A stretch of DNA of 64,000 nucleotides from an uncultured bacterium. Its GTDB lineage: Bacteria; Fermentibacterota; Fermentibacteria; Fermentibacterales; JCC-6. The position numbers were made by a program, and so were the translations under genes. Location of the stretch: assembly GCA_964423505.1 (NCBI GenBank), contig CAYREX010000002.1:24188-88187 (forward strand), in the 5' to 3' direction. Position 1 is the first letter of the stretch. Each line of letters starts with the position of its first letter. Positions 11,564-60,571 of this stretch are shown here, piece by piece. The notes under the pieces are model-generated. The model ran no database searches and had not been told where the DNA came from. It was given only the letters and a program-made list of their open reading frames with translations.

Positions 11564-12286
11564 ATGGAGGGAGCGATGGGCGACACGCACGACGCCGCGG
11601 AGCTCTGGAAGCGCGCCGAGCTGCTCCTGTTCGACTTCGACGGCGTCCTGGCGGACAGCGAGCCGCTCTACAGGCGCTCCTGGAACGAGGCCCTCGAGCC
11701 CTGGGGACACGTCATCCCGGAGGAGGACTACTGGGAGCACTGGTCCTCGAGGGGCGAGGGGCTCGCCGGCGAGATAGCCAGGAAGGGGCTGGAGGGCATC
11801 GACGAAGGGCTGGCCGGCAGGAGGCAGTCGGAGGCGTACGCCAGGCTCTGCCGGGAGGGGCGGGTGCCCCTCTTCGAGGGGGCGGCGGTGCTGCTCCGCA
11901 GGCTCTCCGGCGGCTCGGAGCCGGGCTGCAGGCCCTTCTGTATCGCGTCGAACACCGACTCCGGACTGGTCAGGGTGGTCCTGGAGGCCGGCGGGGCGCC
12001 TGTCCCGCCGATAGTCGGAGGGGAGGGCCTGCCGCGGAAGCCGGCACCCGACATCTTCCTGGAGGCCGCCGGGAGGATGGGAGCGGACCCGCGGTCGACC
12101 CTGGTTCTGGAGGACTCCCTGAAGGGGGCCCTGGCCGCCGGTAAGGGCGGCTTCCGGTGCGTGCTCGTGAGAAACGGGCTGAACGGTGGGATGGACATCC
12201 CCTGCGAGGCAGAGGTAGATGGAACCGAAGGCATGCTTGGGGTCATGGACCTCCTGCAGGCCGGAGAAGGGAGGGCGGATGCTTGA
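11564..12286 (+). CDS. HAD-superfamily hydrolase, subfamily IA (beta-phosphoglucomutase-like phosphatase)
   Basis: LLFDFDGVLADSEP (motif I) and the ...GLPRKPAPDIFLEAAGRMG... motif. Confidence 0.65.
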   Translation: MEGAMGDTHDAAELWKRAELLLFDFDGVLADSEPLYRRSWNEALEPWGHVIPEEDYWEHWSSRGEGLAGEIARKGLEGIDEGLAGRRQSEAYARLCREGRVPLFEGAAVLLRRLSGGSEPGCRPFCIASNTDSGLVRVVLEAGGAPVPPIVGGEGLPRKPAPDIFLEAAGRMGADPRSTLVLEDSLKGALAAGKGGFRCVLVRNGLNGGMDIPCEAEVDGTEGMLGVMDLLQAGEGRADA

Positions 12287-12851
12287 GCTGCTTGGAAGGG
12301 ACCCGACCAGCTGGTCCTTCGTATTCCTGCTGGTAGGGCTGCTGTTCTGCTTCATGGGCCGGAAGATAATGCCGGTCCTGCTGGTGCTCATCGGCTTCGG
12401 AATAGGCTACACCTGGGGGTCGGTACCGCTGTCGGACCTCTTCGGCGCGGAGGCGTGGGTGCCCTGGGTTGCCGGTGCGCTCTGCGCGGTGCTGGCAGTG
12501 GTGCTGTGGAAGCTCTCCGTATTCTTCGCCGGTTCGGTCATCGGGCTCTACCTCTCCCGGTCGGTCTTCCCGGAGCTCGCGGACCTCGCGCACGCCGCCA
12601 TCGCACTCGGCTTCGGCGTGCTGGTGGCCCTCTTCCGCAAGCCCATCATCTGCTTCTTCACCGCCCTGGCCGGCGCTCACACGATAGGGCTGTCGCTGGC
12701 CACGCTGGCCGGCTCCCTGGGGCTCATCGAAACCGTCGGGCTCGTGGCCGAGCAGTCCGCCGGCAACCTGCCCAACATCATCAGGTGGACTGCCACGGCG
12801 CTGTTCACGATCCTCGGTTACCTCTTCCAGATGAGGAAGCTGGAGGACTGA
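12279..12851 (+). CDS. integral membrane protein, hypothetical (5-6 TM helices)
   Basis: ATG 12279 after a [16 protein letters not shown]. Strongly hydrophobic throughout. Confidence 0.5.
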   Translation: MLELLGRDPTSWSFVFLLVGLLFCFMGRKIMPVLLVLIGFGIGYTWGSVPLSDLFGAEAWVPWVAGALCAVLAVVLWKLSVFFAGSVIGLYLSRSVFPELADLAHAAIALGFGVLVALFRKPIICFFTALAGAHTIGLSLATLAGSLGLIETVGLVAEQSAGNLPNIIRWTATALFTILGYLFQMRKLED

Positions 12852-12925: not shown

Positions 12926-13456
12926 TTGCAGTCCAGACTGGTAGACTACGCCCTGGTAGCCCTCGTCATAGTGGTGATAGTGGGGCTGTTCCGGCTCTCG
13001 CGCTACCTGCTCAACACGCTGCTCGACAGGATATCGGAGAGGGATGGCGGCCTCACCGCCGACCGGGTGCTCAGGCTGGGGCTGCGCGTGCTCCTGGTCG
13101 GGCTTCTCGGTCTGCCCTTCGTTACGTCGCTCCTCGCCTTCGCGGACCCGCTCAGGCTGCCCGGGGGCATGCCGCTCCACCTCGCAATGGTGGCGGTGAG
13201 CGTGGTGCTCTTCAGCATCGCCGAGGACAGCTTCAGGATATTCAGGGGTTATCCCAGGGACGAGAGGTGGACCGTAGGCAGGCACATGGCGGCCGCCGCC
13301 CCCTTCCTCGTCGGTTTCTGGCTCGTCGGCTGTCTCTTCCTCAGCCCGCTCTTCTACTCGGGGCTGACCGTCATAATCGCCCTCTTCTACCTCTTCGCCC
13401 TCTCATGCAGGCCCGGGCCCTCCGAGACCGGGATGGAGGAAGACCCTGCCGACTGA
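12926..13456 (+). CDS. integral membrane protein, hypothetical
   Basis: Hydrophobic ORF in the frame of track ORF 12455. TTG 12926 is the first plausible start after the upstream stop; the start is uncertain. Confidence 0.4.
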   Translation: MQSRLVDYALVALVIVVIVGLFRLSRYLLNTLLDRISERDGGLTADRVLRLGLRVLLVGLLGLPFVTSLLAFADPLRLPGGMPLHLAMVAVSVVLFSIAEDSFRIFRGYPRDERWTVGRHMAAAAPFLVGFWLVGCLFLSPLFYSGLTVIIALFYLFALSCRPGPSETGMEEDPAD

Positions 13457-13469
13457 CCGTCCGGTCAAG

Positions 13470-16265
13470 GTGCTCCATGTGATAACGAAGCTCGCCGTAG
13501 GCGGCGCTCAGCTTAACACCCTCATCTCCACCCGCGACATAGACGCCATGGGCTGCCCCTCGACAATACTGACCGGCCCAGAGCGGCCGCCCGAGGGCGA
13601 CCTCTACCGCCTGGCGGACGAATGGGGGCTGCGGGTCCTCACCGCCCGCCACCTGACCCGGAACATCGCGCCGGTGCGGGACCTGCTCGCCTTCTTCGAG
13701 ATACGCCGGGAGATAACCAGGGGCGGCTACGACGTGGTACACACCCACGGCTCCAAGGCCAGGTTCCTCGGCAGGCTGGCCGCGGCCACATGTCACGGCG
13801 TGAAGATAGTACAGACCGCCCACGGGTGGCCCTTCTACGACTCGATGAACCCCTTCCTCCAGTGGCTCTACGTGACCCTGGAGAAGATCGGCTTCGGTCT
13901 GGCCCACGCCAACATCGCGGTCAGCCCGATGGACCGGGACAAGGCCATGCGGCACGGCATCGGCCGTTACGACGACTACAGGATAATCCGCAGCGGGGTG
14001 GAGCTGGAGGGGTTCCGGGCGCTCAGGGGCTCCCGCTCCCGCTCCCGGAGGCTCCTGGACATCCCGGAGGACCGGGAGGTGGTCGGCTCGGTGATGCGGT
14101 TCTGCCCGGAGAAGGCGCCGGACCTGTTCGTGAAGGTGGCCGAGAGGGTCCTGGCGGAGCGTCCCGGCGTCCTTTTCCTCCTGGTCGGGGACGGGCCGCT
14201 CTGGCGGCAGACCCGCCACCTGATACGCGCCCGGGGCCTGAAGGAGGACATCGTCCTCCTCGGAAGCAGGGACGACGTAAGGGACATACTGCCCGCCTTC
14301 GACCTCTTCCTCATCACCTCCCGCACCGAGGGCCTCCCCAGGGCGCTGCTCGAGACCCTCGCCGCCGGCGTGCCGGTTGTCGCCACCGACGTCGGCGGGA
14401 TACCGGAGCTGGTCGGCGGCGGCAGGAACGGCATCCTCTGCCCGGAGGGCGATGTCAGGTGCCTGACCGGGGGCGTCCTCCGGCTGCTCGCCGAGCCGGA
14501 GAGGAGGCCTGCCCTCACGGTAGGCGCCGACGAGGACCTCGAGCCTTTCTCGGCCCGCCGGATGGTGGAGCAGCTCCACGAGCTCTACGACAGGATGGTG
14601 TACCCGCCCATGCACGTGGTGCTCCTCTGCGACGACGAGCCCTTCAACATACCGCAGACGGTGACAAGGATAATCCGGAACAGGCCCTTCCTCCGATACA
14701 CGCTGGTCTCCCTGGCCGGCCACGGGTCCATGCGGCATACCGGCACCAACATCAGGCGGTACATGGCCCTCTACGGCCCGCTGGGGTTCGTCCGGAAGCT
14801 TGCCGGCTACGCTCTCCGCAGGGCCGCTGCCGCGCTCAGGCTGCCCACGCGCACCCCGCACTCGCTCAGGAGGGCGGCCAGGCTGACCGGCGCGGGCTTC
14901 GAGCGCATCGAACGACTGAACTCGAAGGCCGGCCTCGAGCGGCTGCGTCAGCTCTCTCCGGACGTCATCATCTCCATAGCCTGCCCGCAGATACTGAAGA
15001 AGAGGGTCCTCGAGCTCCCTCCTCTCGGCGCCTGGAACGTCCATTCCGCCATGCTCCCCAGGAACCGCGGCATGCTGCCCACCTTCTGGGCGCTCCTGAA
15101 GGGCGACAGACCGGGGGTATCCCTCCACAGGATGACGCGGAGGCTTGACGACGGGGAGATTCTCCTCCAGCGGGAGGTGGATGCCGACATGGAGACGGTC
15201 TCCCTCGAGGACCTCCTCTCCGGGACGAAGGAGCTGGCCTCGGAGCTGGTGGTGGAGGGGCTGGACAGGATAGAGCGGGGCGAGGTCGAGCTGCTCCCCA
15301 ACCCGGCCGAGGAGGCAACCTCCAACACCTTCCCGACCAGGGAAGACGTGAGGGTCTTCCTGGACAGGGGAGGGCAGATATCCGGGACCAGGCACCCGAG
15401 GCCGAAGCTGGCCCTCTCCTTCGACGTGGAGGAGTGGTTCCACACCTCCGCCGCCAGGAGGTGGTTCCCGCCGGAGCAGTGGGACGGAATCGAGCCCAGG
15501 GTCCCGGTGGTGATGGACAGCATACTGGAGCTGCTCGAGAGGCAGAGGGCCAGGGCCACCTTCTTCGTCCTCGGGTGGATACTGGAGCGCCACCCGGACC
15601 TGGTCCGACGCATAAGCGACTGCGGTCACGAGATAGCCTCCCACGGCTACAGCCACGTTGAGATAACGCAGCTGAGCAGGGAGCAGTTCGAGAGCGACCT
15701 GGACAGGTTCCGGAGGCTGGTGGACAGGCTCTCCATACCTCCGCCCAGGGGCTTCCGCGCACCGAGCTTCTCGATGGTCTCCGAGACGAAGTGGGCCGTG
15801 GACGCCATAGTCTCGAACGGTTACAGCTACGACAGCAGCGTCTACCCCATGTTCAAGCACCGCTACGGTATGCCAGACGCCCCGCAGGAGCCCTTCATGC
15901 TGCAGGGCGGCCGCTCGTCAATACTCGAACTCCCCCTGGCGTCCATCTCGATGATGGGGGTCAAGGTCCCGGTGGCCGGTGGCGCCTACATGAGGTTCTA
16001 CCCCGGCATCCTCCACAGGAAGTTCCTGGCCGACATAGCGAAAACCGGAAGAGTTCCTGTAATTTATCTGCATCCATGGGAGATAGATTCGGTAAATATG
16101 TCGAGCAGGATGAACATGCTCCAGAGGTTCAGGCAGCACCACAACTCCGGGAGGACCATGGTTCGGAGGCTCGGCAGGATACTCAGGGTCTACAGGACCA
16201 TCACCCTCTCGGAGCTTGCGGAGGACGTGGAGAGGGGCGAGCTGCAGGAGCTCTCGGTCCTGTAG
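13470..16265 (+). CDS. trifunctional fusion: GT4 glycosyltransferase + formyltransferase (Fmt/ArnA-N-like) + NodB-type polysaccharide deacetylase (PEP-CTERM-locus subfamily-like)
   Basis: One uninterrupted 931-aa ORF. Residues 1-370 carry GT4 motifs (ITSRTEGLPRALLETLAAGVPVVATDVGGIPELV). Residues 375-620 are formyl-transferase-like (WNVHSAMLPRNRGMLPTFWALLKGD). Residues 625-931 are NodB-like (LSFDVEEWFHTS...HGYSHVEIT...YLHPWE). Confidence 0.7.
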   Translation: MLHVITKLAVGGAQLNTLISTRDIDAMGCPSTILTGPERPPEGDLYRLADEWGLRVLTARHLTRNIAPVRDLLAFFEIRREITRGGYDVVHTHGSKARFLGRLAAATCHGVKIVQTAHGWPFYDSMNPFLQWLYVTLEKIGFGLAHANIAVSPMDRDKAMRHGIGRYDDYRIIRSGVELEGFRALRGSRSRSRRLLDIPEDREVVGSVMRFCPEKAPDLFVKVAERVLAERPGVLFLLVGDGPLWRQTRHLIRARGLKEDIVLLGSRDDVRDILPAFDLFLITSRTEGLPRALLETLAAGVPVVATDVGGIPELVGGGRNGILCPEGDVRCLTGGVLRLLAEPERRPALTVGADEDLEPFSARRMVEQLHELYDRMVYPPMHVVLLCDDEPFNIPQTVTRIIRNRPFLRYTLVSLAGHGSMRHTGTNIRRYMALYGPLGFVRKLAGYALRRAAAALRLPTRTPHSLRRAARLTGAGFERIERLNSKAGLERLRQLSPDVIISIACPQILKKRVLELPPLGAWNVHSAMLPRNRGMLPTFWALLKGDRPGVSLHRMTRRLDDGEILLQREVDADMETVSLEDLLSGTKELASELVVEGLDRIERGEVELLPNPAEEATSNTFPTREDVRVFLDRGGQISGTRHPRPKLALSFDVEEWFHTSAARRWFPPEQWDGIEPRVPVVMDSILELLERQRARATFFVLGWILERHPDLVRRISDCGHEIASHGYSHVEITQLSREQFESDLDRFRRLVDRLSIPPPRGFRAPSFSMVSETKWAVDAIVSNGYSYDSSVYPMFKHRYGMPDAPQEPFMLQGGRSSILELPLASISMMGVKVPVAGGAYMRFYPGILHRKFLADIAKTGRVPVIYLHPWEIDSVNMSSRMNMLQRFRQHHNSGRTMVRRLGRILRVYRTITLSELAEDVERGELQELSVL

Positions 16266-16336: not shown

Positions 16337-16504
16337 CTAGGGAGCCTCGATGGCCCCTACGGGACAGGCGGCTACGCAGGCGCCGCAGTCGATGCAGGTA
16401 TCCGCATCGATGGAGTACTTCTCGCCCTCGCTTATGGCGTCCACGGGGCACTCGGGCATGCAGGCGCCACAGGCGATGCAGTCGTCGTTTATCTTGTGAG
16501 CCAT
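16337..16504 (-). CDS. fdx: 2x[4Fe-4S] ferredoxin
   Basis: MAHKINDDCIACGACMPECPVDAI...CIDCGACVAACPVGAI. ATG 16504 preceded by AAAGGAGAG. Confidence 0.8.
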   Translation of the reverse strand: MAHKINDDCIACGACMPECPVDAISEGEKYSIDADTCIDCGACVAACPVGAIEAP

Positions 16505-16553
16505 ACGCTCTCCTTTCATGGGGCAGGAACTATGTCAACGCCTGATCCGGGGG

Positions 16554-17423
16554 TCAACTTCCCCTTCCACTCCCGCCGATTATCTCCAGTATCCTGTCCA
16601 GCTCCCGGAGGTCGTGGAAGGATATCTCTATCCTGCCGGAACCACTGCGGGAGACCACCCTCACCCTTGTGCCCAGGTGTCTCTGCAGCCGCTCCTCGAG
16701 GCTCTTCACCTCGGCGGTGGATTCGCCGGTGCCTGTCCTCGGCCTGCGCACCGGACCGGAGGTCTCGCTCCTGACCAGCTCCTCCACCTTCCTCACGGAG
16801 AGGCCGCGGCGGGCCGCCCGGAGGGCCAGACGCTCCATCCTCTCCCCGTCTTCCATGGCCAGCAGAGCCCTGCCGTGCCCCATCTGAAGCCTCCCCTCCC
16901 GCAGCAGGTGCTGCACCTTCTCCGGGAGATCGAGCAGACGGATGAAGTTGGCGACGGCGGATCGGCTCATCCCCATCCTCGAGGCTATCGCCTCCTGGGA
17001 GAGACCGAACCTCTCCCTCAGGGAATGGAAGGCCTCGGCCTTCTCCATCGGCCCGAGGTCCCTTCGCTGGAGGTTCTCGACGAGTGCCATGGCGAGCATC
17101 TGCTCGTCGTCGGCGTCTCGTACGACGGCCGGGACCTCCCTCAGCCCGACCTCGCGTGCGGCCCTGAGCCTCCGCTCTCCGGCTATCAGCTGGAACCGGT
17201 CACCACTCCTCCTGAGAACCAGCGGCTGCACGATGCCCTGCTCCCTCACCGACGCAGCCAGCGCCGATATCTCCACCGGGTCCCACTCCCTCCTCGGCTG
17301 GAAGGGGTTGGGGTCGATGAGCTCTACCGGGACGCTGCCCTTCTCGGTCCCGTCATCGCTCCCGACGCCGGGGAAGAGCTCGTCCAGGCCACGGCCCAGC
17401 GCCTTCCTCCTCCTGCCGCTCAT
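16554..17423 (-). CDS. parB: chromosome partitioning protein ParB (Spo0J)
   Basis: [11 protein letters not shown], the [13 protein letters not shown] box, and an HTH region. ATG 17423 overlaps the parA stop (ATGA). Confidence 0.9.
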
Positions 17424-18172
17424 CGCTCCAGCACCTCCCTCGCAAGGTTCAGATAGCCGAGCGCGCCGGCGCACCTGGCATCGTACATGAGAACCGGCCT
17501 GCCGTAGCTCGGGGCCTCCCCCAGCCTCACGTTCCTGGGGATCCTCGTCCTGAACAGCAGGTCGCCCAGCTTGCTCCCCACCTCTCCGGCAACCTCGTTG
17601 CTCAGCTTCAGCCTCGAGTCGTACATGGTCAGGAGCACGCCTCCGAAGACCAGCCCCGGGTTCCACCTGCTCCTGACGTACCTCATGGTGGTCATCAGGT
17701 GCGAGAGGCCCTCCAGGGCGTAGTACTCGCACTGGAGGGTGACGAGGACCTCGGTCGCCGCCACGAGGCCGTTCAGGGTCAGGAGCCCCAGTGAGGGCGG
17801 GCAGTCGATCAGCACGAAGTCATAGCCCGATGCCTGCTCCTCCAGCGCCTCGGCCAGGAGGAACTCCCTCTGCTCGACCTTGGCCAGCTCTATCTCCAGG
17901 CCGGCCAGCTCCCGGGAGCCGGGGACCGCCCAGAGACCCTCTACGCATGTCTCCCTCACCACATCGGACAGCTCTGCCCTGCCGAGGAGCAGCTCGTATA
18001 CGCTCTCACCCTCTCCGGAGAGGCCGATACCGCTGGTGGCGTTCGCCTGGGGGTCGATGTCCACCAGCAGGACGTTGCGCTCGTACATGGCAAGGCTCGC
18101 CGCGAGGTTTATGGCGGTAGTGGTCTTCCCCACGCCGCCCTTCTGGTTGGCTATCGCGATGGTTCGGGTCAT
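17420..18172 (-). CDS. parA: chromosome partitioning ATPase ParA (Soj)
   Basis: [28 protein letters not shown]; deviant Walker A. Confidence 0.9.
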
Positions 18173-49989: not shown

Positions 49990-50085
49990 AGAGCACCGTC
50001 GGGCAAACCGGGGGAGACCCCGGGACGCAAAGCCACGGGTCCCAGCCACCGCATGGGGACGGTGGAAGGACGGCCGGGTTGCCGT
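49990..50085 (+). promoter_or_regulatory. c-di-GMP-I (GEMM) riboswitch, copy 1
   Basis: GGGCAAACC-GGGG-GAGA-CCCC-GGGACGCAAAGCCACGGGUCC...GGACGGCCGGGUUGCCG. This matches the GEMM core (GCAAACC, GNRA loop, GGGACGCAAAGCC, 3' AGCNGGGUUNCCG element). Confidence 0.7.
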
Positions 50086-50168
50086 TTGCAGAGGCAAACC
50101 GGGGGAAACCCCGGGACGCAAAGCCACGGGTCCCAGTCCGGGAGACCGGAAAGGACAGCCGGGCCGCC
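50086..50168 (+). promoter_or_regulatory. c-di-GMP-I (GEMM) riboswitch, copy 2 (tandem)
   Basis: GAGGCAAACC-GGGG-GAAA-CCCC-GGGACGCAAAGCCACGGGUCC...GGACAGCCGGGCCGCC. 43-nt core identical to copy 1 apart from the tetraloop. An 8-bp hairpin CCGCCCCG-GGAA-CGGGGCGG follows, immediately 5' of the GAGGAGG RBS. Confidence 0.65.
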
Positions 50169-50211
50169 AGACGACCGCCCCGGGAACGGGGCGGTTGAGG
50201 AGGTGCTCGAG

Positions 50212-50487
50212 ATGAAGTGGATACCACTACTTATGGTAACGCTTCTTCCGTCGGTGCTGTTTGCTGGTGTAGTCGTGACCTCCGCTCCAGCCACCCCCGA
50301 GAATCTCGTGGTCGTGGCGAGGGCATCCATGGAGGAAGGCGACTACGTGACCGCATGGGCTCTCTACGAATGCGCCCTCAGGAGGGATCCCCACTCTCCC
50401 GAGGCACTCGCAGGCAGACTCGCCGCGAGGGCCGAGCTGGAGGAGCGCGGAGAAGAGGACCTGATAGCGGCATTGTACCGGCAGTAG
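50212..50487 (+). CDS. small secreted protein (91 aa; signal peptide + single TPR-like helix pair), hypothetical
   Basis: GAGGAGG RBS then ATG 50212. MKWIPLLMVTLLPSVLFAGVVVTSAPA signal. First ORF downstream of the tandem riboswitches. Confidence 0.5.
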   Translation: MKWIPLLMVTLLPSVLFAGVVVTSAPATPENLVVVARASMEEGDYVTAWALYECALRRDPHSPEALAGRLAARAELEERGEEDLIAALYRQ

Positions 50488-50591
50488 CACCGTACAGAGC
50501 GAGGGGCGGGCCGAGAGGCCCGTCCCGCCAGTTCCAGAGGCCCCGCGGTACCCCGAGAGAAGATGCCCCACAGGAGAAAGGAAGAACCCGT

Positions 50592-51308
50592 ATGTGCGAG
50601 TTCGACGATGAGCTCTACGAGTGCGAATGCGACGATTACAGGCTGCCCCTCATAGGCGAGAAGGCCCCGGAGTTCGAGGCCGAGACGACCCAGGGCCCCA
50701 TCAGCTTCCCCGAGGACTACAGCGGCAAGTGGGTGGTCTTCTTCTCCCATCCCGCCGACTTCACTCCGGTCTGCACCACGGAGTTCATGACCTTCGCCTC
50801 GATGCAGGACGAATTCTCCCGGCTCGACTGCGAGCTCCTCGGCCTCTCGATCGACAGCAACTTCAGCCACATCGCGTGGGTGAGGACCATACGTGAGAAG
50901 ATAGAGTTCGGCGGCATGAAGAACGTCGACGTCCGCTTCCCCATTATCAGCGACCTCTCCATGGAGGTCGCCATGAAGTACGGCATGCTCCATCCGGACG
51001 CCAGCGACACGCAGGCGGTCAGGGCGGTCTTCATAATAGACCCCGACTCGGTAGTCAGGGCCATCCTCTACTACCCGCTCAGCAACGGCCGGAACATGAA
51101 GGAGATCAAGAGGCTCCTGCTCGCCCTGCAGCACACGGACGAGCACGGCGTCGCAACTCCCGCCAACTGGCATCCGGGCGACGACGTCATCATCCCCCCG
51201 CCGGGAACCTGCGCCGCCGCCGACGAGCGCGTCGAAGGCGCCGGCGACGAGTACCGCTGCCAGGACTGGTTCCTCTGCCTGAAGAAGTGCACCCACGGAG
51301 AGTGCTGA
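50592..51308 (+). CDS. 1-Cys/Prx6-type peroxiredoxin with Cys-rich N- and C-terminal extensions
   Basis: FSHPADFTPVCTTEF peroxidatic motif. N-terminal extension MCEFDDELYECECDD. C-terminal YRCQDWFLCLKKCTHGEC. GGAGAAAGG RBS. Confidence 0.85.
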   Translation: MCEFDDELYECECDDYRLPLIGEKAPEFEAETTQGPISFPEDYSGKWVVFFSHPADFTPVCTTEFMTFASMQDEFSRLDCELLGLSIDSNFSHIAWVRTIREKIEFGGMKNVDVRFPIISDLSMEVAMKYGMLHPDASDTQAVRAVFIIDPDSVVRAILYYPLSNGRNMKEIKRLLLALQHTDEHGVATPANWHPGDDVIIPPPGTCAAADERVEGAGDEYRCQDWFLCLKKCTHGEC

Positions 51309-52688: not shown

Positions 52689-53042
52689 CTAGAGGATGCG
52701 GGGCAGGAAGACCAGAGCGCCCACCGCCATCGCCCCCAGAGACGCCAGCAGCACGGAGGCCGCGGCCAGGTCCTTGGCCTTTCGCACCAGGTCGTGCCGT
52801 TCCGGGGCCACGTGGTCCGACAGGAACTCCAGGGCGCTGTTCATGGCCTCCGAAGCCAGCACCAGCGCGGAGGCGAGCGCGACGAGGGCCCAGTCCCCGC
52901 TGCCTATCCGGAGCACGAGCCCGGCGACGGCCACGAGCGCCAGCGCCAGGAGGTGTATCCTGGCGTTCCTCTGGGTGGAGAAGAGCACGCGGACCCCCGC
53001 CAGGGCGTGGGCGAAGCTGGAGGCCAGGCCGTTCCCGCTCAT
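52689..53042 (-). CDS. dgkA: diacylglycerol kinase / undecaprenol kinase family (DgkA)
   Basis: ...FAHALAGVRVLFSTQRNARIHL...; 3 TM; 117 aa. Confidence 0.75.
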   Translation of the reverse strand: MSGNGLASSFAHALAGVRVLFSTQRNARIHLLALALVAVAGLVLRIGSGDWALVALASALVLASEAMNSALEFLSDHVAPERHDLVRKAKDLAAASVLLASLGAMAVGALVFLPRIL

Positions 53043-54187
53043 CCGTAGAAGGAGCGGAGCGCTCCGACCACCTCCTCCAGCTCGGCCTCGGTCAGCTCGC
53101 CGAACACCGGCAGGGAGAGCACCTCCGCGGAGGCCCGCTCCGACTCCGGCATGTCACCACTGCCGTAGCCGAGGTCCGAGAAGCACTCCTGGAGATGGAG
53201 CGGCAGAGGGTAGTAGACTGAGCACCCTATGCCCCGCTCCCTGAGGTGGGCGAGGAGCCCGTCGCGGTCCTCCGCCCTTATCGTGTACTGGTTGTAGACC
53301 GGATCCGCCCTCCGGTCCATGACCGGCGTCGCCACCTGCTCGAGGTCGGCCAGCGCCTCGTCGTAGTAGGCGGCGTTCCGCCTCCTGCCCTCGTGCCAGC
53401 CTTCCAGCGCCGGCAGCTTCACCCTGAGGAAGCCGGCCTGTATGGCGTCCATCCGGCTGTTGAAGCCGACCTCCGAGTGGAGGTAGCCGCTTCCGCCGTG
53501 CTCCCTCAGCCTGACCAGCCTCTCCCTGACCACCTCGCTGGGGGTGGTAACCAGTCCGGCGTCTCCGAGGGCACCGAGGTTCTTCGAGGGGAAGAAGCTG
53601 AAGCAGCCGGCCGCCCCGAGCGAACCGGCCGGCTCCCCCCGCCAGCTCGCCCCTATGGCCTGGCAGGCGTCCTCGACCACCGGGAGCCCCCAGTCGGAGG
53701 CCGTCCCGCCTATCGCGTCCATGTCCGCCACCTGCCCGAAGAGATGTACCGGGAGGATAGCGGCCACCCGGCGGCCGGTCACCCTGTCCACGACCCCCCT
53801 GTCGGTCACCACGCATCGGGAATCGAGCCATCCGTCGAGCTGCTCCGGGGCCATGTTGTAGGTCGCCGGTGAGATGTCCAGGAAGACCGGCGTGCCGCCG
53901 GCCCGGACCACCGCTCCGGCGGTGGCGAAGAATGTGAAGGGCGTGGTCAGGACCAGGTCGCCGCCGGAGACCCCGATCGCCATGAGCGAGAGTATCAGGG
54001 CGTCGGTGCCCGACGCGCATCCGACGGCGTACTCGACGCCGCAGTAGGAGGCCAACTCCTCCTCCAGCGCCTCCAGCTCGGGGCCCTTCACGAACCGGGA
54101 GCTGTCCAGGGCCCTGTCGAGCACCGCCCTGAGCTCCTCCATGAGCGGCTCGTGCTGCCTGTTGATGTCGAGCAGTGGAACCGGCAT
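53039..54187 (-). CDS. DegT/DnrJ/EryC1/StrS family PLP-dependent sugar aminotransferase (ArnB/PseC-like)
   Basis: ...GCASGTDALILSL...FFPSKNLGALGDAG...; Lys-containing PLP motif region. Confidence 0.85.
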   Translation of the reverse strand: MPVPLLDINRQHEPLMEELRAVLDRALDSSRFVKGPELEALEEELASYCGVEYAVGCASGTDALILSLMAIGVSGGDLVLTTPFTFFATAGAVVRAGGTPVFLDISPATYNMAPEQLDGWLDSRCVVTDRGVVDRVTGRRVAAILPVHLFGQVADMDAIGGTASDWGLPVVEDACQAIGASWRGEPAGSLGAAGCFSFFPSKNLGALGDAGLVTTPSEVVRERLVRLREHGGSGYLHSEVGFNSRMDAIQAGFLRVKLPALEGWHEGRRRNAAYYDEALADLEQVATPVMDRRADPVYNQYTIRAEDRDGLLAHLRERGIGCSVYYPLPLHLQECFSDLGYGSGDMPESERASAEVLSLPVFGELTEAELEEVVGALRSFYG

Positions 54188-54221
54188 CTGCCCGCCCCCT
54201 TCCTTCCCTCGGATGTCCCGG

Positions 54222-55622
54222 CTAGTGGGCCCCGGCGCCGGTGAGGACCACCTTGAGCGTCCTGGCCAGGATCTCTATGTCCAGGTATATCGACCTGTTC
54301 TCTATGTAGAAGAAGTCGAACTTGAGCTTGTCAGCGACGCTGTCCAGGTCGGTGTCGTACTCCAGCTTGACCTGCGCCCAGCCGGTCAGCCCCGGCTTGA
54401 CGGTCAGCCGCTTGGCGTAGAACGGGAACACCTTGCGGAGGTCCTCGACGAAAGCGGGACGCTCCGGACGGGGACCGACCACCGACATGTCCCCGGCGAG
54501 CACGTTCAGGAGCTGCGGGACCTCGTCCAGCCTGGTCCTCCGCAGCAGCTTTCCTACGCGGGTGACCCTCGGGTCGTTCCTGCCGGCCCAGACCGGTCCG
54601 CTCTTGCTCTCCGCGTCCTGCACCATGCTCCTGAACTTGTATATGCGGAAGACCTTCCCGCCCAGGCCGACCCGCTCCTGGCGGTAGAAGACGGGGCCCC
54701 TGGAATCGAGCCTGATGGCGGCTGCCACGATTATCCACAGAGGCATCCCCGCCAGTATGGTGACTATGCTGATGCCGTAGTCCATGAACACCTTCAGCAG
54801 CTTCTGCCCGTAGCTGAGCCGCTCGGCCATGATGCTCATGAGCGGCTGCCCCATTATCTGGGTGCTGTGTACGTGGCCGGCGACCACGTCGAACAGGTCC
54901 GGCACGGCCTTGACCCTCGCGCCGGTGACGGCTGCCGGGAGCAGCAGCGAAAGGATGTCCTCGTGGAAGTTCGAGGCTATGGTTACCAGCAGCTCGTCGA
55001 CCCCGTGCCCGGAGATCAGCTCCTCCAGGTCCGCGACACCTCCGAGTATCGCCTCATCCGGCACGGCCCTCTCCATCTCCCCGACGCCGTCGGCCTCGAC
55101 GAAGCCGACTATCCGGTAGCCGAGCGCCGGGTTGTTCCTCAGGTTCTCCGCCAGGGTCACCGCCTGCTCGCCGGTGCCGACCACCAGAGCCTTCCTGTAG
55201 AGCCGTCCCCGCCTCGAGAGACGCCTCTCCAGGAGCCTGGCCACCCCGCGGGAGGCGAAGAGGAAGAGGATTAGGAGGGCGTAGTAGAAGATGATTATCC
55301 ACCGCCCTACGGAGGTGGAGGGCGCTATCAGGAACGCACCGAAGAAGAGGACAATGAACCCGGTGGTGACCGGCCTCATGACCAGCCTGAGCTCGTCGGC
55401 CCAGCTCATGTCCCAGTGGGGCCTGTAGGCGCCGGAGAGGAAGAGGATGGCCCACCAGAACGGCAGCGAGAAGAGGGCGCCCTCCAGCACCATCCGGGGG
55501 GCCATGGGCATGGCCTCCGGGAAGAGGCTGGAGTCGAACTTCAGCCAGGCGGCCACCACCATGGCCATGAAGACCGCGATGCCGTCGAGGATGAAGCCCA
55601 TCAGGGCTACCCTGCGCTTCAT
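54222..55622 (-). CDS. polyprenyl-phosphate hexose-1-phosphate transferase (WbaP/EpsB-like initiating sugar transferase)
   Basis: N-terminal TM helices and a Rossmann-like linker. C-terminal bacterial sugar-transferase domain (...VGPRPERPAFVEDL...GLTGWAQV...). Confidence 0.8.
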   Translation of the reverse strand: MKRRVALMGFILDGIAVFMAMVVAAWLKFDSSLFPEAMPMAPRMVLEGALFSLPFWWAILFLSGAYRPHWDMSWADELRLVMRPVTTGFIVLFFGAFLIAPSTSVGRWIIIFYYALLILFLFASRGVARLLERRLSRRGRLYRKALVVGTGEQAVTLAENLRNNPALGYRIVGFVEADGVGEMERAVPDEAILGGVADLEELISGHGVDELLVTIASNFHEDILSLLLPAAVTGARVKAVPDLFDVVAGHVHSTQIMGQPLMSIMAERLSYGQKLLKVFMDYGISIVTILAGMPLWIIVAAAIRLDSRGPVFYRQERVGLGGKVFRIYKFRSMVQDAESKSGPVWAGRNDPRVTRVGKLLRRTRLDEVPQLLNVLAGDMSVVGPRPERPAFVEDLRKVFPFYAKRLTVKPGLTGWAQVKLEYDTDLDSVADKLKFDFFYIENRSIYLDIEILARTLKVVLTGAGAH

Positions 55623-56749
55623 CCCGAGTCGCCCCCTCTGCTGCTGTCCCAGGTCTCCACCGGCCTGCCCAGGGCTGTCTTGGCGATTCCCGTCAGCGAG
55701 GCCGCGTTCATCAGCCAGAACACATACGGGAAAGAGAGCGGAGACGGTAGCCTCCCGCCGGATGCCAGTCCGGCCAGCGCCAGGGCATGGAAGGCGCACA
55801 GCGCCGCCAGGATCGCTCCATAGGGGGGGGTCGCCGCCAGGAGGCAGGCCGTTGCGGTGGAGAGGACCAGGAAGAGGCCGGTCAGCCAGCGGAGGAGCTT
55901 GTGGAAGAGGAGCTGCAGGAAGAGGCCGACCCTTCCCGAAGCCATCGCCCTGCCCATGAGCATCACGCAGCTGACGCTCATCCAGCTGGATATCCTGACC
56001 AGCCTGCGGAACTGCCTCCTGTCGTCTGGGGAGGGCTCCTCCGCCACCGCCCTCTCCTCGAAGAGGCACCGGTAGCCCCGGACACGGGCCATGGCAGCCA
56101 GCTCGAAGTCGTCGGCCCTGCGGGGGGAGAGAGGCTCGTAGGCCTCGCGCCTGAGGGCGAAGATCGCCCCGGTGGCGCCGAGGACCGCCCCCAGACGGGA
56201 GCAGAGACTCTTCAGCGCCTTCTCGTACCGCCAGTAGATGCTCTCGCTTGTCGGAGAGTCCAGGCTGTTCACCCTGGCCCCGTCCACGCAGCCCACGCGG
56301 GGGTCGGCGAACGGAGCAACCAGCCGCCTGACGGCGTCGGGGGCGAACACGGTGTCCGCGTCGGTCATGACCAGGACCTCGCCGGCCGACATCTCCTCGA
56401 GCCTGCCGATGATGCCCGGCTTTCCCAGCCTCTGTCCGCTCCTGTACAGCCTCACGCCCCTGTCGGCGAAGCCGGAGACAATCTCGTCTGTCCGGTCGGT
56501 GGAGCTGTCCGACCCGACCAGCACCTCCAGCTCTCCCGGATAATCCTGGTCGAGCAGGTTCAGTATCCTGTCGCCTATGTGCTCCTCCTCGTTCCTGGCC
56601 GCCAGCAGGACGCCGACCGCCGGCCACTCGACCGGCTCCGGCAGGCTGCGCCTGCGGGTCAGGACGGAGGCCAGCAGCAGGACCAGCGGGTACAGCAGCC
56701 AGGAGGAGGCCGAGAGACCGAGGAAGGTCCAGAAGAGCGCCTCCGCCAT
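55619..56749 (-). CDS. membrane-bound family-2 glycosyltransferase
   Basis: ...VGVLLAARNEEEHI...VLVGSDSSTDRTDEI... (GT2 DxD region), with N- and C-terminal TM helices. Stop overlaps the WbaP ATG (ATGA). Confidence 0.7.
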   Translation of the reverse strand: MAEALFWTFLGLSASSWLLYPLVLLLASVLTRRRSLPEPVEWPAVGVLLAARNEEEHIGDRILNLLDQDYPGELEVLVGSDSSTDRTDEIVSGFADRGVRLYRSGQRLGKPGIIGRLEEMSAGEVLVMTDADTVFAPDAVRRLVAPFADPRVGCVDGARVNSLDSPTSESIYWRYEKALKSLCSRLGAVLGATGAIFALRREAYEPLSPRRADDFELAAMARVRGYRCLFEERAVAEEPSPDDRRQFRRLVRISSWMSVSCVMLMGRAMASGRVGLFLQLLFHKLLRWLTGLFLVLSTATACLLAATPPYGAILAALCAFHALALAGLASGGRLPSPLSFPYVFWLMNAASLTGIAKTALGRPVETWDSSRGGDSG

Positions 56750-56753
56750 GACG

Positions 56754-58208
56754 TCAGCGCCTCCTTACGAACAGGTGCCGCCTGAAGGTGCCGAAGGCCT
56801 TGAGGGTTCGTCTGCCCTCGGTCAGGGGGTGCCTCAGGGTCTGGAGCGCCTTGTAGAGGAGGTAGGAGGGCCTGAGGTAGAACCGCCTCCTGGCCTCGTC
56901 GCACCACGAGACCAGCCGGTCGGCCGGGAGGCCGGGCAGGTCGACCACGCAGTTGTGAAGACCATCCGGGGTGACCCATCGGTCGAAGCTGCGCGTCCGC
57001 AGCATGCCCTCGGCGGCGTACTCGTCGTAGAGCCTGGTTCCCGGGTAGGCCATGATGGGGAAGAACTGGGCGGTGTCCGGCGCCAGGTCCACGGCCATGC
57101 GGAAGGTCTGCTCCAGCGTCCGTTCCGTCTCCCCCGGGTTGCCGGCCATGAAGCAGCCGTGGACCAGCAGCCCGGCCCTCCTCGCCCTGGAGGCGAACTC
57201 CCTGTTCTGCTCGACCGTCGTCCCCTTGGAGACGCCGTCGAGTATCTCCTGGGCGCCGCTCTCGTAGCCGACGATTATCAGCCTGCACCCGGCCGCCCTC
57301 ATCTTCCTCATGGCCTCCAGGGAGAGGTTGGCCCGCACGTTGGCGGTCCATGGAAGGCGGTTGCCCGCGCGCAGAAGAGCCTCGGAGACCTCCTCCACCC
57401 TCGAGCTGTCTATCGAGAAGGTATCGTCCTCGATGACCACCTCCCTGACCTGAGGGAAGCGCTCGGCGAAGAGGGCCATCTCCTCGGCCACGTGCCCCGG
57501 GGACCTGACGCGGTACCTTCCCCTGTGCATGACCTGCGGCCAGACGCAGAAGGAGCACCTGTACGGGCACCCCCTGCTGGTGATGGTCATCACGCTCGGA
57601 TACCTGGCCGCTGCGAAGAAGTAGTCCTCGGGCCGCAGGTGCCGGCCGTAGACGTCGGCCAGGAATGGGAGAGAGTCCAGGTCCGATATCATCTCCCGCT
57701 CGCCGGTGGCCACCGTCCCGCCATCCCGGGAGAGGACGAGCCCCGGCACGTCCGCCGGGTCCGTCTCCCCCTCCAGGGCCGCGGCCAGCTCCGTCACCGT
57801 GATGTCGTACTCCCCTGCCGCGACGGCGTCCAGGGAGGGGGCGAGCGCCAGGCAGTGATCGGGCAGGGCGCTGGCATGGGTGCCCACCAGCACGACGAAA
57901 GCCTCCGGGAGGGCGGCCTTCGCCATGGAGGCAAGACGCAGGTCGGAGTATATGGACGGCGTCGAGGTGTCCATGACCACCAACCCCGGAGAGATATCCA
58001 CCAGCCCTGCCATGAGCTCGCCCTCCCCGATGCCGGCAGCCGGGCAGTCCAGAAGCCTGACCTCGTGGCCGGCCTCCTCCAGCGAGCCGGTGGCATGCGC
58101 CAGCCAGAAGGGCCAGTAGAGGGTACCGCTCTTGTTAATCGCGGGGGAGCGGGAGGTCCTGGAGAACCGGCCGTCCATGAAGGGCGGGTTCACGACGCAG
58201 ACCCTCAT
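56754..58208 (-). CDS. B12-binding-domain radical SAM protein (class B)
   Basis: N-terminal cobalamin-binding-like domain. CPYRCSFCVWP radical SAM motif. 484 aa, embedded among polysaccharide genes. Confidence 0.8.
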   Translation of the reverse strand: MRVCVVNPPFMDGRFSRTSRSPAINKSGTLYWPFWLAHATGSLEEAGHEVRLLDCPAAGIGEGELMAGLVDISPGLVVMDTSTPSIYSDLRLASMAKAALPEAFVVLVGTHASALPDHCLALAPSLDAVAAGEYDITVTELAAALEGETDPADVPGLVLSRDGGTVATGEREMISDLDSLPFLADVYGRHLRPEDYFFAAARYPSVMTITSRGCPYRCSFCVWPQVMHRGRYRVRSPGHVAEEMALFAERFPQVREVVIEDDTFSIDSSRVEEVSEALLRAGNRLPWTANVRANLSLEAMRKMRAAGCRLIIVGYESGAQEILDGVSKGTTVEQNREFASRARRAGLLVHGCFMAGNPGETERTLEQTFRMAVDLAPDTAQFFPIMAYPGTRLYDEYAAEGMLRTRSFDRWVTPDGLHNCVVDLPGLPADRLVSWCDEARRRFYLRPSYLLYKALQTLRHPLTEGRRTLKAFGTFRRHLFVRRR

Positions 58209-59299
58209 CGCATCGCTCCCTCCACGCCCTCGGCGAACGCCTCCGCCGCCCTCTCCCAGGTGAGCTCGGACGCCCTCCGCCTTCCCCGGACGGAGAGGTC
58301 GCGCCTCAGTTCCGGGTCCGACAGCAGCTCCGCTGCGCCGCGCATGATGTCGGTGACCGACGTCGGGTCCACGAGTACTCCCGCTCCCTCCACGAGCTCC
58401 TCCAGCGCGGTGCCGGATGAGACGAGAACCGGCGCCCCGCCCGCCATCGCCTCCAGCGCCGGAAGGCCGAAGCCCTCCTGCAGAGAGGGCATGAGCAGCG
58501 CCGCGCACGAGCGGTAGAGCTCCCTGAGCTCCTCCTCGTTGATGCCGGAGACCACGTTGATGGAGTCGGCCGCCGGGCTCTCCCGTACCTCCCGCATCAG
58601 GGAGGGCAGCGCCCTGTCCCGCCTTACCACCATGAGCAGCTCCGGGATGTCGCCGCCGGTCAGGGCGTGCAGCCTGCCGTAGGCCACCACTAGCCTGGTC
58701 AGGTTCTTGTAGGCCCTGGCGTTGCCGACGTAGAGCAGGAACCCCTCCTCCCTCTCCCCCCCCTCGCGCTCCGGGTCGAAGAGCTCCTGGCCCTCCCCGG
58801 TGACGAAGGCCAGGCGGCCGGTGCCCGGGAAGGTCTCCTCCAGCTCGCGCAGCGTCGCCCGGGAGGGGACGGCTATCCCGCTGGCGTGGGCCAGCGACCT
58901 GCCTATCCTCCTCCTGAAGTAGAACCTCGAGGGGAGGTTCCGGACCGGGTTCGGACCGAAGTAGCCCGGGAGGTTGAGCACCATCAGGTCGTGGACCGTG
59001 TAGATGGAGGGGACGTCCGGGCACGGCCCGGCCATGGAGAAGCTGGCGTAAGCGTCGGCGCCGGTATCCGAGACCAGGCCCGCGACGGCGCGGTCCTCCC
59101 CGGGCCTGAACCTCGGCGCGTCGCAGAGCAGCACCTCCACGCCGGTGTCCCGGAGGTGCCGCTCCCCTCCGGCGCCGACCGCAACGGAGAGCCTCCAGCC
59201 GGGACGGACATCCCGGAGACGCGACGTTATCCCCAGCGAGTAGCGGCCGATGCCGTCGACCTGCGCCTGGAGAGCCCTGGCGTCTAGGAGAAGGTGCAT
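58205..59299 (-). CDS. glycosyltransferase family 4
   Basis: GT-B C-terminal motif (...LLMPSLQEGFGLPALEAMAGGAPVLVS...). Stop overlaps the B12-rSAM ATG (ATGA). Confidence 0.75.
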   Translation of the reverse strand: MHLLLDARALQAQVDGIGRYSLGITSRLRDVRPGWRLSVAVGAGGERHLRDTGVEVLLCDAPRFRPGEDRAVAGLVSDTGADAYASFSMAGPCPDVPSIYTVHDLMVLNLPGYFGPNPVRNLPSRFYFRRRIGRSLAHASGIAVPSRATLRELEETFPGTGRLAFVTGEGQELFDPEREGGEREEGFLLYVGNARAYKNLTRLVVAYGRLHALTGGDIPELLMVVRRDRALPSLMREVRESPAADSINVVSGINEEELRELYRSCAALLMPSLQEGFGLPALEAMAGGAPVLVSSGTALEELVEGAGVLVDPTSVTDIMRGAAELLSDPELRRDLSVRGRRRASELTWERAAEAFAEGVEGAMR

Positions 59300-59368
59300 A
59301 GGCCACTCCCGGTAAGTTCGTATCTCGGGGCGAGCAGGGCGGAAGATACGGCCTCGAACGGGGTCAAG

Positions 59369-60571
59369 TCAGCGTCCGCCCTCCCGGGCCATGGACATCA
59401 GTATGTCTCCCAGCCGTCCGGCGGCCCCGTCCAGGGTCCTCTCCACGGTCACGGTCTCCACGCCGCCGGCGAGCATACGATGCCTGAGGCCGGGGTCGGA
59501 CATCACGCGGGAGAGGGCCTCCGCCATATCCTCCGGCCTGCGGGCGACCAACAGCCCGTTCCTGCCGTCCACGACGCTCTCGGTGAAGCCGCCCTCGCGG
59601 ACCGCTATGACGGGCGTACCGCAGGCCATTCCCTCCAGCGGGACCAGCCCGTACGGCTCGCGGTGCTGGCAGCAGAGCACGGCCCGGGCTCCCCTGTACA
59701 GCTCCCTCACCCGACCGTCCGGAGCGCCCCGGAGCACCTCCAGCCGGACCCCCCTTCTCCCGGCCTCCTCCTCCAGCCGCTCTCGGTATCCGGGTAGCTC
59801 CCTGTCGCCGACCACCACCAGACCGGGACGCTCCTCCTCCGGGAGCAGGCCCAGGGTCTCCACCGCCATGCCGTGTCCCTTGAAGGGCCAGAGGGCCCCG
59901 ACGCTGAGGACGTATGGCCGGGAGGGTGGCGATGGCCCCGGACGGAAGAAGGAGAGGTCCACCCCCGGGCTGACCACCTCGGCGCTCCTGCCGTAGATGG
60001 TCCCGACCAGGCGGGCCATCCATCCGGAGAGGGTCAGCACCCGCCCGGCCGCCTCCACCGATTCGCGGTCCATCCGCGCCTCGGCCCTCCGCAGGGGCGA
60101 GAGGAGCAGCCTGGCCAGGGGGCTGCGGGCCCTGAGCACTACGTCCGGCTCGTATATGTGCCTCGGGTACTCGTAGCAGAAGTACGCCGCCGGTACCTCC
60201 AGGTACCGGAGGAGTGGAGGGGCGGCCACCAGCATGGAGCCGTGGACCAGGACCACGTCCGACTCCCGCTCCAGGACGCCTGCCATTCTCGAGCAGAGCC
60301 TCTCCAGCGCCCTCAGCCTGGCGGGGGCGGTCAGCGGGGCGGCCAGCCTTCGGAGACCGGAGAGCCTCCTGCCTGCGCGGAAGGGCCATTCGCGGACGTC
60401 CAGCCCGCTCTCCCCGAGAGACGCGGCCCCCTCCGGGCAGTGCACCCTAACCTCGAACCTCCCGGACAGGCGGGAGAGCAGCTGTCCCGCTACCCTGACA
60501 CCGCCGCCGGAGGGCAGGTGGTGGAACACGCCGAGCCTAGGCACGTTCGCCGCCGGGCGCGCTTCGTCCAT
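59369..60571 (-). CDS. glycosyltransferase family 4
   Basis: ...LCCQHREPYGLVPLEGMACGTPVIAVREGG... GT1-type EX7E region. Confidence 0.7.
   Translation of the reverse strand: MDEARPAANVPRLGVFHHLPSGGGVRVAGQLLSRLSGRFEVRVHCPEGAASLGESGLDVREWPFRAGRRLSGLRRLAAPLTAPARLRALERLCSRMAGVLERESDVVLVHGSMLVAAPPLLRYLEVPAAYFCYEYPRHIYEPDVVLRARSPLARLLLSPLRRAEARMDRESVEAAGRVLTLSGWMARLVGTIYGRSAEVVSPGVDLSFFRPGPSPPSRPYVLSVGALWPFKGHGMAVETLGLLPEEERPGLVVVGDRELPGYRERLEEEAGRRGVRLEVLRGAPDGRVRELYRGARAVLCCQHREPYGLVPLEGMACGTPVIAVREGGFTESVVDGRNGLLVARRPEDMAEALSRVMSDPGLRHRMLAGGVETVTVERTLDGAAGRLGDILMSMAREGGR

Follow-up and report, generated by a model that had tools for sequence, protein, structure and literature searches.

A fused GT4 glycosyltransferase, formyltransferase-like and NodB-type deacetylase gene of Fermentibacterota and a possible N-acetyl to N-formyl exchange in glycan assembly

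Introduction

In the NodC-NodB-NodA and LpxC-LpxD systems the N-acetyl group of an N-acetylglucosamine (GlcNAc) residue is replaced by another acyl group, and in the BshA and MshA pathways the deacetylases, i.e., BshB and MshB, are of the LmbE type and the acylating steps are a cysteine ligation and an acetylation. The 2-N-formyl hexosamine GalNFoA has been described as a residue of the O6 O antigen of Pseudomonas aeruginosa. In a published survey of NodB proteins, ArnD was placed in a separate membrane-associated esterase family, the nearest structures of which (PDB 3rxz, 3qbu, 1z7a and 3s6o) are uncharacterised. Furthermore, in a legionaminic-acid-like cluster of Candidatus Kuenenia stuttgartiensis, a deacetylase and formyltransferase pair was inferred to yield nonulosonic acids with a free amine or an N-formyl group, at the level of nucleotide sugars (SugarBase preprint 10.64898/2026.04.20.719630). 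The present analysis concerns a single gene located at positions 13470..16265 (+) of a 64,000-nucleotide stretch (hereafter the window) of contig CAYREX010000002.1, from the assembly GCA_964423505.1 of an uncultured member of the Fermentibacterota. Its product combines a GT4 glycosyltransferase domain, a formyltransferase-like domain and a NodB-fold deacetylase domain, which may together exchange the N-acetyl group of a sugar for a formyl group.

The tri-domain gene and its product

A reading made from the letters of the window alone (hereafter the sequence-only reading) had described one uninterrupted reading frame of 931 amino acids (aa), in which these three domains are joined. Both parts of this description were borne out, as an open reading frame (ORF) occupies exactly 13470-16265 (+), and a Pfam architecture search of this ORF at gathering thresholds (GA) placed all three units above threshold. 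The gene and its domains are as follows:

13470..16265 (+): tri-domain gene GT4-FT-NodB, 931 codons plus stop, with a GTG start
13470..14603 (+): aa 1-378, GT4 (GT-B, retaining-type) glycosyltransferase domain, assigned by Pfam and by its EX7E motif
14610..15380 (+): aa 381-637, formyltransferase-like (FT) domain, assigned by Pfam, invariant residues and a structure model
15396..16262 (+): aa 643-931, NodB-fold deacetylase domain of the XrtA-system type, assigned by Polysacc_deac_1, DUF3473 and TIGR03006

The ORF exhibits a clear coding signature for a genome of 67% GC, with GC fractions of 0.64, 0.45 and 0.90 at the three codon positions, and the catalytic motifs are intact in all three domains. 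A database protein identical to the ORF product (P0001) is 928 aa long, so that its start would be the next in-frame GTG, at 13479. The 931-aa protein contains no transmembrane segment, since no hydrophobic stretch of sufficient length is present. An antisense ORF of 829 aa at 13371-15860 (-), which covers most of the tri-domain gene, failed the codon-position GC filter and is probably a by-product of high GC content; it represents the kind of frame that gene callers may mis-report.

Full-length relatives of the protein fall into approximately 59 clusters (at 90% identity) of approximately 937 aa, which are 48-62% identical to the query over 97-100% of its length, possess an identical architecture and derive from NCBI, JGI, ENA and Logan assemblies. 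The named members of these clusters are Candidatus Fermentibacteria, Aegiribacteria or Fermentibacterales, and no tri-domain fusion was found beyond the Fermentibacterota when either the whole protein or its FT and NodB half was used as the query. It could be argued that a frameshift in assembly or sequencing falsely joined three genes, as unfused three-gene versions do exist (see below) and a one-base indel at the junctions would fuse them. Such an artefact is nevertheless very unlikely, to the point of being barely credible, because the approximately 59 clusters from independent assemblies share the full-length fusion at the same locus; moreover, the linkers are in-frame and conserved, both in the window and in a relative (L001), and the GC fraction at third codon positions is 0.90 across the ORF taken as a whole.

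Domain assignments

Within the N-terminal domain, Glyco_transf_4 (PF13439) covers aa 21-180 with 61.7 bits (GA 28.5) and Glycos_transf_1 (PF00534) covers aa 191-348 with 104.6 bits (GA 26.4), while the EX7E motif is located in the C-terminal half of the domain as E287-GLPRALL-E295. The closest solved relatives are BshA, PimB', PglA and MshA, of which BshA is the best match, and they include users of uridine diphosphate N-acetylhexosamine (UDP-HexNAc), BshA, PglA and MshA being HexNAc-transferring enzymes. The domain remains far from the equivalog cutoffs of both thiol pathway models, scoring 117.8 bits versus 273.7 for BshA (TIGR03999) and 69.7 bits versus 462.5 for MshA (TIGR03449).

The central domain matches Formyl_trans_N (PF00551) at aa 485-596 with 66.5 bits (GA 26.1). 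Its residues N523, H525 and D560 are invariant across an alignment of 40 diverse family members, and both the Asn-His-Asp set and the HxxxLPxxRG loop, which were taken as the mark of family membership, are present. The domain is predicted from its sequence to be a folate-type formyltransferase of the Fmt/ArnA-N/PurN superfamily. In the structure model, which has a predicted local distance difference test (pLDDT) score of 93.7, the core fits onto ArnA-N with a deviation of 1.8-1.9 A and 32% identity and the domain carries a long helical insertion that is specific to the family, while Formyl_trans_C, i.e., the C-terminal domain of Fmt and ArnA, is absent from the FT part according to both Pfam and the model. 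ArnA-N is also the best match among solved sequences (70.8 bits). The NCBIfam models for ArnA, Fmt and generic formyltransferases returned 84.9, 82.3 and 77.6 bits, respectively, all far below their cutoffs. An identity as ArnA was rejected, as the ArnA model NF005998 is matched with 84.9 bits versus a cutoff of 777 and the ORF contains no epimerase/dehydratase domain. An exhaustive search with the FT domain revealed a family of mostly stand-alone proteins of approximately 255-262 aa, which span the entire domain, and no NCBIfam model specific to this family of approximately 260 aa was found.

The C-terminal domain contains Polysacc_deac_1 (aa 680-773, 73.3 bits) and DUF3473 (aa 789-915, 100.7 bits). 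The sequence-only reading had suggested a comparison with the XrtA-system deacetylase model TIGR03006, which proved apt: the domain on its own scores 277.2 bits against a cutoff of 276.2, while the same model scored within the whole fusion reaches 273.5 bits, slightly below that cutoff, and the domain may therefore be regarded as a marginal member of this family. Residues D652, E654, H725, H729, R763 and H868, which are invariant in an alignment of 25 sequences, are all retained. With regard to the CE4 motifs, MT2 (HGYSH) fits H(S/T)xxH, whereas MT1 reads FDVE (D652/E654) in place of TFDD, MT3 reads RAPSF in place of RxPY and MT5 reads LHPWE in place of LxH. TIGR04243, a further NodB model, scored 48.9 bits on this domain.

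A NodB fold was predicted for the domain, with a model pLDDT of 92.5, and a Foldseek search of the PDB with this model returned 3rxz and 3qbu as the top matches (template modelling (TM) score of 0.63). ArnD (8t0j) appeared at rank 18, with a TM score of 0.56 and 14% identity, and was rejected as the closest structural relative, being placed behind 3rxz and 3qbu. Membership of ArnD was likewise rejected, as no ArnD NCBIfam model was returned at E<=1 and no ArnD was present among PDB sequence hits at E<=0.01. Based on these comparisons, ArnD and the NodB domain appear to share the broad NodB subclass only.

The deacetylase domain operates in the cytoplasm, because it is fused to enzymes that require a nucleotide sugar and formyl-tetrahydrofolate and because the protein has no transmembrane segment, a deduction which is firmer than that of the chemistry discussed below. 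Stand-alone relatives of this deacetylase that are encoded beside FT genes are probably cytoplasmic as well. The deacetylases PgaB, IcaB, PgdA and PelA act outside the cytoplasm. No exosortase family was found among the called genes within 8-10 kb on either side of the module in eight loci (L001-L008) or among the annotated neighbours in the window.

Split genes, partial fusions and genomic linkage

In two other Fermentibacteria, represented by L007 (GCA_014728175.1) and L008, the same locus comprises three separate genes with overlapping stop and start codons, encoding a GT4 of 386 aa, an FT of 259 aa and a deacetylase of 300 aa. When aligned to the window protein, they are collinear with its aa 1-376, 381-637 and 643-930, with identities of 55, 52 and 46-51%, respectively, and leave linkers of only 4-5 residues between its domains; the window ORF therefore corresponds to a translationally coupled operon of three genes that have been fused end to end.

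Independent partial fusions among more distant organisms emerged only from the exhaustive search with the FT domain. In one of these (P0255/L091) a GT4-FT fusion, which shares 31% identity with the window protein over aa 1-634, is followed by a gene for a TIGR03006-type deacetylase (221.7 bits); in another (P0271/L090, GCA_054922095.1) an FT-NodB fusion is preceded by an overlapping GT4 gene, while a third (P0189) is a GT2-FT fusion. All four fusion states therefore exist, the GT4-FT and FT-NodB ones in unrelated organisms, and the order is always GT4, FT and NodB. The functional coupling of the three activities put forward in the sequence-only reading is strongly supported by the overlapping three-gene version and by the two arrangements in which GT4-FT is accompanied by NodB and GT4 by FT-NodB.

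Within the phylum, a protein of 576 aa (P0121; longest contig 25,757 bp) consists of FT and NodB parts only and is 58% identical to the window protein. It may represent a further fusion state in which GT4 is separate, or a truncated gene call.

When species-representative genomes were scanned with an alignment of eight FT sequences, 80 loci were identified, of which 20 carry a full-length FT-family gene, while the remaining 60 match the formyltransferase core only and served as a negative set. A TIGR03006-like deacetylase gene (167-360 bits) is directly adjacent on the same strand in 14 of the 20 full-length loci, where the two genes overlap or are separated by at most 115 nucleotides and may occur in either order, compared to none of the 60 core-only loci. 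Carriers of the FT loci include Binatia, Desulfobacteraceae, Chlorobiales, Gemmatimonadales, Bacteroidota (Aquimarina, Spirosoma and Larkinella), a gammaproteobacterium, Clostridia, Omnitrophica and the haloarchaeon Halopenitus salinus. Among those that carry the pair side by side, Aquimarina sp. LLG6339-5, Spirosoma panaciterrae DSM 21099, Larkinella rosea KCTC 52004 and Halopenitus salinus SKJ47 can be cultivated.

The surroundings of the FT-deacetylase pair are lipid-linked glycan assembly loci. For example, the neighbours at L009 comprise Bac_transf, GT4, Wzy_C and UDP-GlcNAc 2-epimerase genes, while those in Aquimarina comprise two Wzy genes, Wzx, a GT2, a WecA/MraY-type transferase, a UDP-sugar dehydrogenase, NeuB and a cytidylyltransferase.

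In Halopenitus salinus (L017, 9193-11932; NZ_JBHSXL010000011.1), the FT, deacetylase and GT4 genes are consecutive and overlapping. This module is situated a few kb from the AglB oligosaccharyltransferase gene and a Bac_transf gene, a location which suggests that it may modify the archaeal N-glycan.

At a further locus (L036, 8615-15370), from a metagenome-assembled gammaproteobacterium (OZ255836.1), transposase genes of the DDE, ISL3 and integrase types border the pair. This arrangement hints that the two-gene FT-deacetylase unit may move as a cassette.

The locus in Fermentibacterota

The loci of three tri-domain relatives were inspected beside that of the window. In all four, POR, ack and pta are encoded on one strand, followed on the other strand by a HAD hydrolase, a TM198-like membrane protein, a membrane protein of approximately 173 aa and the tri-domain gene, and subsequently by parB, parA, gidB, gidA, trmE, yidC, yidD and rnpA. 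Given this order of genes from POR to rnpA, the window represents the replication-origin region of a Fermentibacterota-like genome. The genes that border the tri-domain gene in the window are as follows:

11564..12286 (+): hydrolase of the HAD-IA type (beta-phosphoglucomutase-like), heading the same-strand unit that is conserved within the phylum
12219..12851 (+): TM7S3/TM198-like membrane protein, a weak match below the Pfam cutoff, with a likely start at ATG 12279
12926..13456 (+): multi-pass membrane protein of 176 aa, with no family match
16337-16519 (-): small ferredoxin, following the tri-domain gene and present in two of the three relatives

The HAD-IA hydrolase is a candidate for a functional tie to the tri-domain enzyme. 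Conservation of the TM7S3/TM198-like gene in the same-strand unit does not extend beyond the phylum. In Fermentibacterota the gene of the 176-aa membrane protein always immediately precedes the GT4 part, and in relatives its stop touches or overlaps the GT4 start, the two being translationally coupled, making this protein a candidate partner of the tri-domain enzyme. For both upstream membrane proteins, searches of Pfam and NCBIfam at E<=10 returned nothing usable beyond the weak TM7S3/TM198 match. None of ArnB, ArnC (GT2), ArnT (GT-C) or ArnE/F is co-located, the neighbours being the HAD hydrolase, the two membrane proteins, the ferredoxin and parB/parA.

The ParB ORF at 16554-17732 (-) encodes 392 aa from its first possible start, compared to 285-290 aa in relatives. 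Since no Pfam domain is matched before aa 133, translation probably starts some 100 codons further downstream. The parA ORF, when likewise taken from its first possible start, overlaps this ParB ORF.

A separate glycan cluster is located at 52689-60571 of the window:

52689-53042 (-): DgkA-type kinase
53039-54187 (-): DegT aminotransferase (344 bits)
55619-56749 (-): GT2 glycosyltransferase
58205-59299 and 59369-60571 (-): two GT4 glycosyltransferases

The sequence-only reading had pointed to this DegT gene as a companion of the tri-domain gene. The aminotransferase itself is genuine, but the partnership was rejected as unsupported, since the gene lies 37 kb away on the minus strand, i.e., opposite to the tri-domain gene, and in another cluster beside the DgkA, GT2 and GT4 genes.

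Elsewhere in the window, tandem c-di-GMP-I riboswitch aptamers (RF01051) are present at 49992-50086 and 50087-50171 (+), with 64.9 and 59.7 bits (gathering score 35), directly upstream of an ORF at 50217-51308 (+). The C-terminal part of the encoded protein is an AhpC/TSA 1-Cys peroxiredoxin, while its N-terminal portion of approximately 145 aa is without assignment. Such a peroxiredoxin-like gene seems an unusual target of a c-di-GMP riboswitch.

Proposed activity and alternative explanations

The explanation that we favour, to which we assign about an even chance, is an N-acyl exchange on a 2-acetamido sugar that is coupled to the transfer of this sugar; the substrates, order of steps and product are inferred, while the gene itself, its intact motifs, the linkage of its parts across phyla and its cytoplasmic location are established above. 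The NodB domain would strip a HexNAc of its N-acetyl group, the FT domain would re-acylate the exposed amine with a formyl group from N10-formyl-tetrahydrofolate, and GT4 would attach the residue to an acceptor that is probably a lipid-linked or membrane-associated glycan. The exchange may proceed either on the nucleotide sugar prior to transfer or on the transferred residue afterwards, and would give a glycoconjugate that bears a 2-N-formyl-hexosamine. Both the GalNFoA residue of P. aeruginosa O6 and the pair inferred in Candidatus Kuenenia are in keeping with such an exchange. Neither in four loci for which Pfam annotations were available nor in two annotated flanks was a DegT-type gene found within 10 kb on either side of the pair. 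Since no aminotransferase was found near the module, the free amine is more likely to originate from de-N-acetylation, and the order of steps would consequently be the reverse of that in the sequence-only reading, which had proposed formylation, transfer and deformylation in the style of 4-amino-4-deoxy-L-arabinose (Ara4N) synthesis. That earlier order is poorly supported, as the deacetylase is not ArnD, the GT4 is not ArnC and a decarboxylase is lacking.

A number of points weigh against this exchange. There is no biochemistry for any member of the FT family or of TIGR03006 and, to our knowledge, all characterised sugar N-formyltransferases use nucleoside diphosphate (NDP)-linked 3- or 4-amino sugars made by aminotransferases rather than de-acetylated 2-amino sugars. 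Only six loci were checked for an aminotransferase with Pfam, and the absence of DegT at the 20 genome loci rests on a single-sequence probe without a positive control. Six of the 20 FT-family loci, two of which are at contig edges, have no adjacent deacetylase gene, and identities of 25-30% are too low to read the donor specificity of the GT4 domain. Furthermore, an initiating transferase, a flippase and a polymerase are absent from the Fermentibacterota locus, which forms part of a housekeeping, origin-proximal block, so that the locus itself does not point to an acceptor. Fermentibacteria are predicted to be diderms with lipopolysaccharide, so that lipid A, the core or another envelope glycolipid may be the target in these bacteria.

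The same absence of an initiating transferase, flippase and polymerase would suit a pathway akin to those of mycothiol, bacillithiol or glycosylphosphatidylinositol, in which GT4 would add a HexNAc to a phosphorylated small acceptor or a membrane lipid, the HAD hydrolase would dephosphorylate it, NodB would de-N-acetylate it and FT would cap the amine, so that a glycolipid or soluble glycoside would be formed rather than a polysaccharide. Among solved proteins the GT4 domain is matched best by BshA and also by MshA, and the gene shares a same-strand unit with the HAD-IA hydrolase and two small membrane proteins in an origin-proximal housekeeping region. However, the BshA score is far under its cutoff, the HAD and membrane protein genes were not found beside the module outside the phylum, and elsewhere the module resides in loci of the Wzx/Wzy or AglB type; the conserved synteny also includes the unrelated pta, ack, POR and parAB genes and may thus reflect a slowly rearranging region. 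We therefore consider such a small-molecule pathway unlikely. The three activities may alternatively tailor different residues or positions of one glycan independently, having been fused for co-expression only. Fusions of glycan-tailoring enzymes are generally common, four FT loci (L013, L016, L021 and L068) are without an adjacent deacetylase gene and GT-FT fusions occur without a fused deacetylase, yet the adjacency of 14 of 20 versus none of 60 loci is very specific, adjoining genes share overlapping stop and start codons, the fusions recur in one fixed order in unrelated lineages and the GT4-FT fusion of L091 still has a deacetylase gene next to it, all of which renders independent tailoring unlikely.

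An Arn-like order of events, in which FT would formylate an NDP-amino sugar made elsewhere, GT4 would transfer it to a lipid or glycan acceptor and NodB would deformylate it to leave a free-amine (cationic) sugar, the formyl group thus being a temporary protection, draws on the closeness of the FT domain to ArnA-N described above and on the NodB fold of ArnD, whose four nearest structures (3rxz, 3qbu, 1z7a and 3s6o) are also top matches of the NodB domain. Furthermore, all sugar N-formyltransferases known to have been characterised act on nucleotide sugars, and a DegT aminotransferase is present in the window. However, ArnA and Fmt match the FT domain about equally well, the deacetylase belongs with TIGR03006 while ArnD is found neither among the model matches at E<=1 nor above rank 18 by fold, and a GT4 takes the place of an ArnC-like GT2 in a protein that lacks the decarboxylase domain. 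The DegT gene lies in a distant cluster and none was found beside the pair in the other loci examined. This order accordingly appears rather unlikely. If it were true, it would represent a new way to cationic surface sugars outside the Proteobacteria.

Returning to the N-acetyl to N-formyl exchange, the fusion acts as a Rosetta stone that ties three enzyme families into one pathway and places the XrtA-type deacetylases, a large and uncharacterised family, in the cytoplasm beside nucleotide-sugar and folate-cofactor enzymes. We tentatively suggest, at slightly less than even confidence, that a glycosyltransferase, an FT protein of approximately 260 aa and a cytoplasmic XrtA-type NodB deacetylase form a widespread and unrecognised module in Bacteria and haloarchaea, which would convert N-acetyl to N-formyl groups (or to a free amine) during lipid-linked glycan assembly. 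Such a module would provide a function for an uncurated FT family and a candidate route to 2-N-formyl hexosamines of the GalNFoA type, and would imply that TIGR03006 deacetylases act intracellularly on precursors and not on the exported polymer. The exchange itself, if true, would constitute a new biosynthetic route to N-formyl hexosamines without an aminotransferase, would render this surface-glycan modification predictable from genomes across many phyla and haloarchaeal N-glycosylation loci, and would offer glyco-engineering a self-contained single polypeptide.

The sequence-only reading did not recognise the tri-domain arrangement among described systems, and a description of it was likewise not found in the literature, where searches on DUF3473, on a Fermentibacteria glycosyltransferase, on formyltransferase together with polysaccharide deacetylase and PEP-CTERM, and on 2-formamido-2-deoxy sugars returned nothing, nor was an experimentally defined substrate of TIGR03006 found. 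Based on the literature and curated libraries searched, the tri-domain protein, the FT family of approximately 260 aa and the tight pairing of FT with XrtA-type deacetylases appear to be undescribed. They do not amount to a new kind of system, because every domain can be placed in a known superfamily and glycan enzymes are commonly found fused.

Comparison with known systems

The Arn (PmrHFIJKLM) system resembles the module in that one pathway contains a sugar formyltransferase of the folate type together with a glycosyltransferase and an amidohydrolase of the NodB fold, and the FT core is approximately 32% identical to ArnA-N with the N/H/D triad retained. It differs in that the module is devoid of the ArnA decarboxylase, employs a soluble GT4 in place of the membrane GT2 of Arn, contains a NodB domain of the TIGR03006 type with 14% identity to ArnD and has no adjacent ArnB-type, ArnT or ArnE/F gene, while the order of steps is probably reversed. 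As regards the XrtA/PEP-CTERM deacetylases, the C-terminal domain reaches the TIGR03006 cutoff and retains all invariant residues, but there is no exosortase among the annotated neighbours and the domain is fused to GT4 and FT.

The deacetylase and formyltransferase of Candidatus Kuenenia are comparable in logic: they too are encoded by adjacent genes and inferred to de-N-acetylate and N-formylate an acetamido sugar, although their substrates are cytidine monophosphate (CMP)-nonulosonic acids and the genes are neither fused nor linked to a GT4. With the BshA/MshA pathways the module shares the best solved match of its GT4 domain, i.e., BshA, and the order of GT4, de-N-acetylase and N-acylation, whereas its deacetylase is of the NodB and not the LmbE type and its GT4 scores are far below the equivalog cutoffs. 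The NodC-NodB-NodA and LpxC-LpxD systems likewise consist of a sequential glycosyltransferase, de-N-acetylase and N-acyltransferase, with a NodB-fold deacetylase as a further likeness. The module departs from them in that its predicted acyl group is a formyl group from N10-formyl-tetrahydrofolate rather than a fatty acyl group, its glycosyltransferase is a GT4 and not a GT2, its N-acylating enzyme is unrelated to NodA or LpxD, and all three activities reside in one polypeptide.

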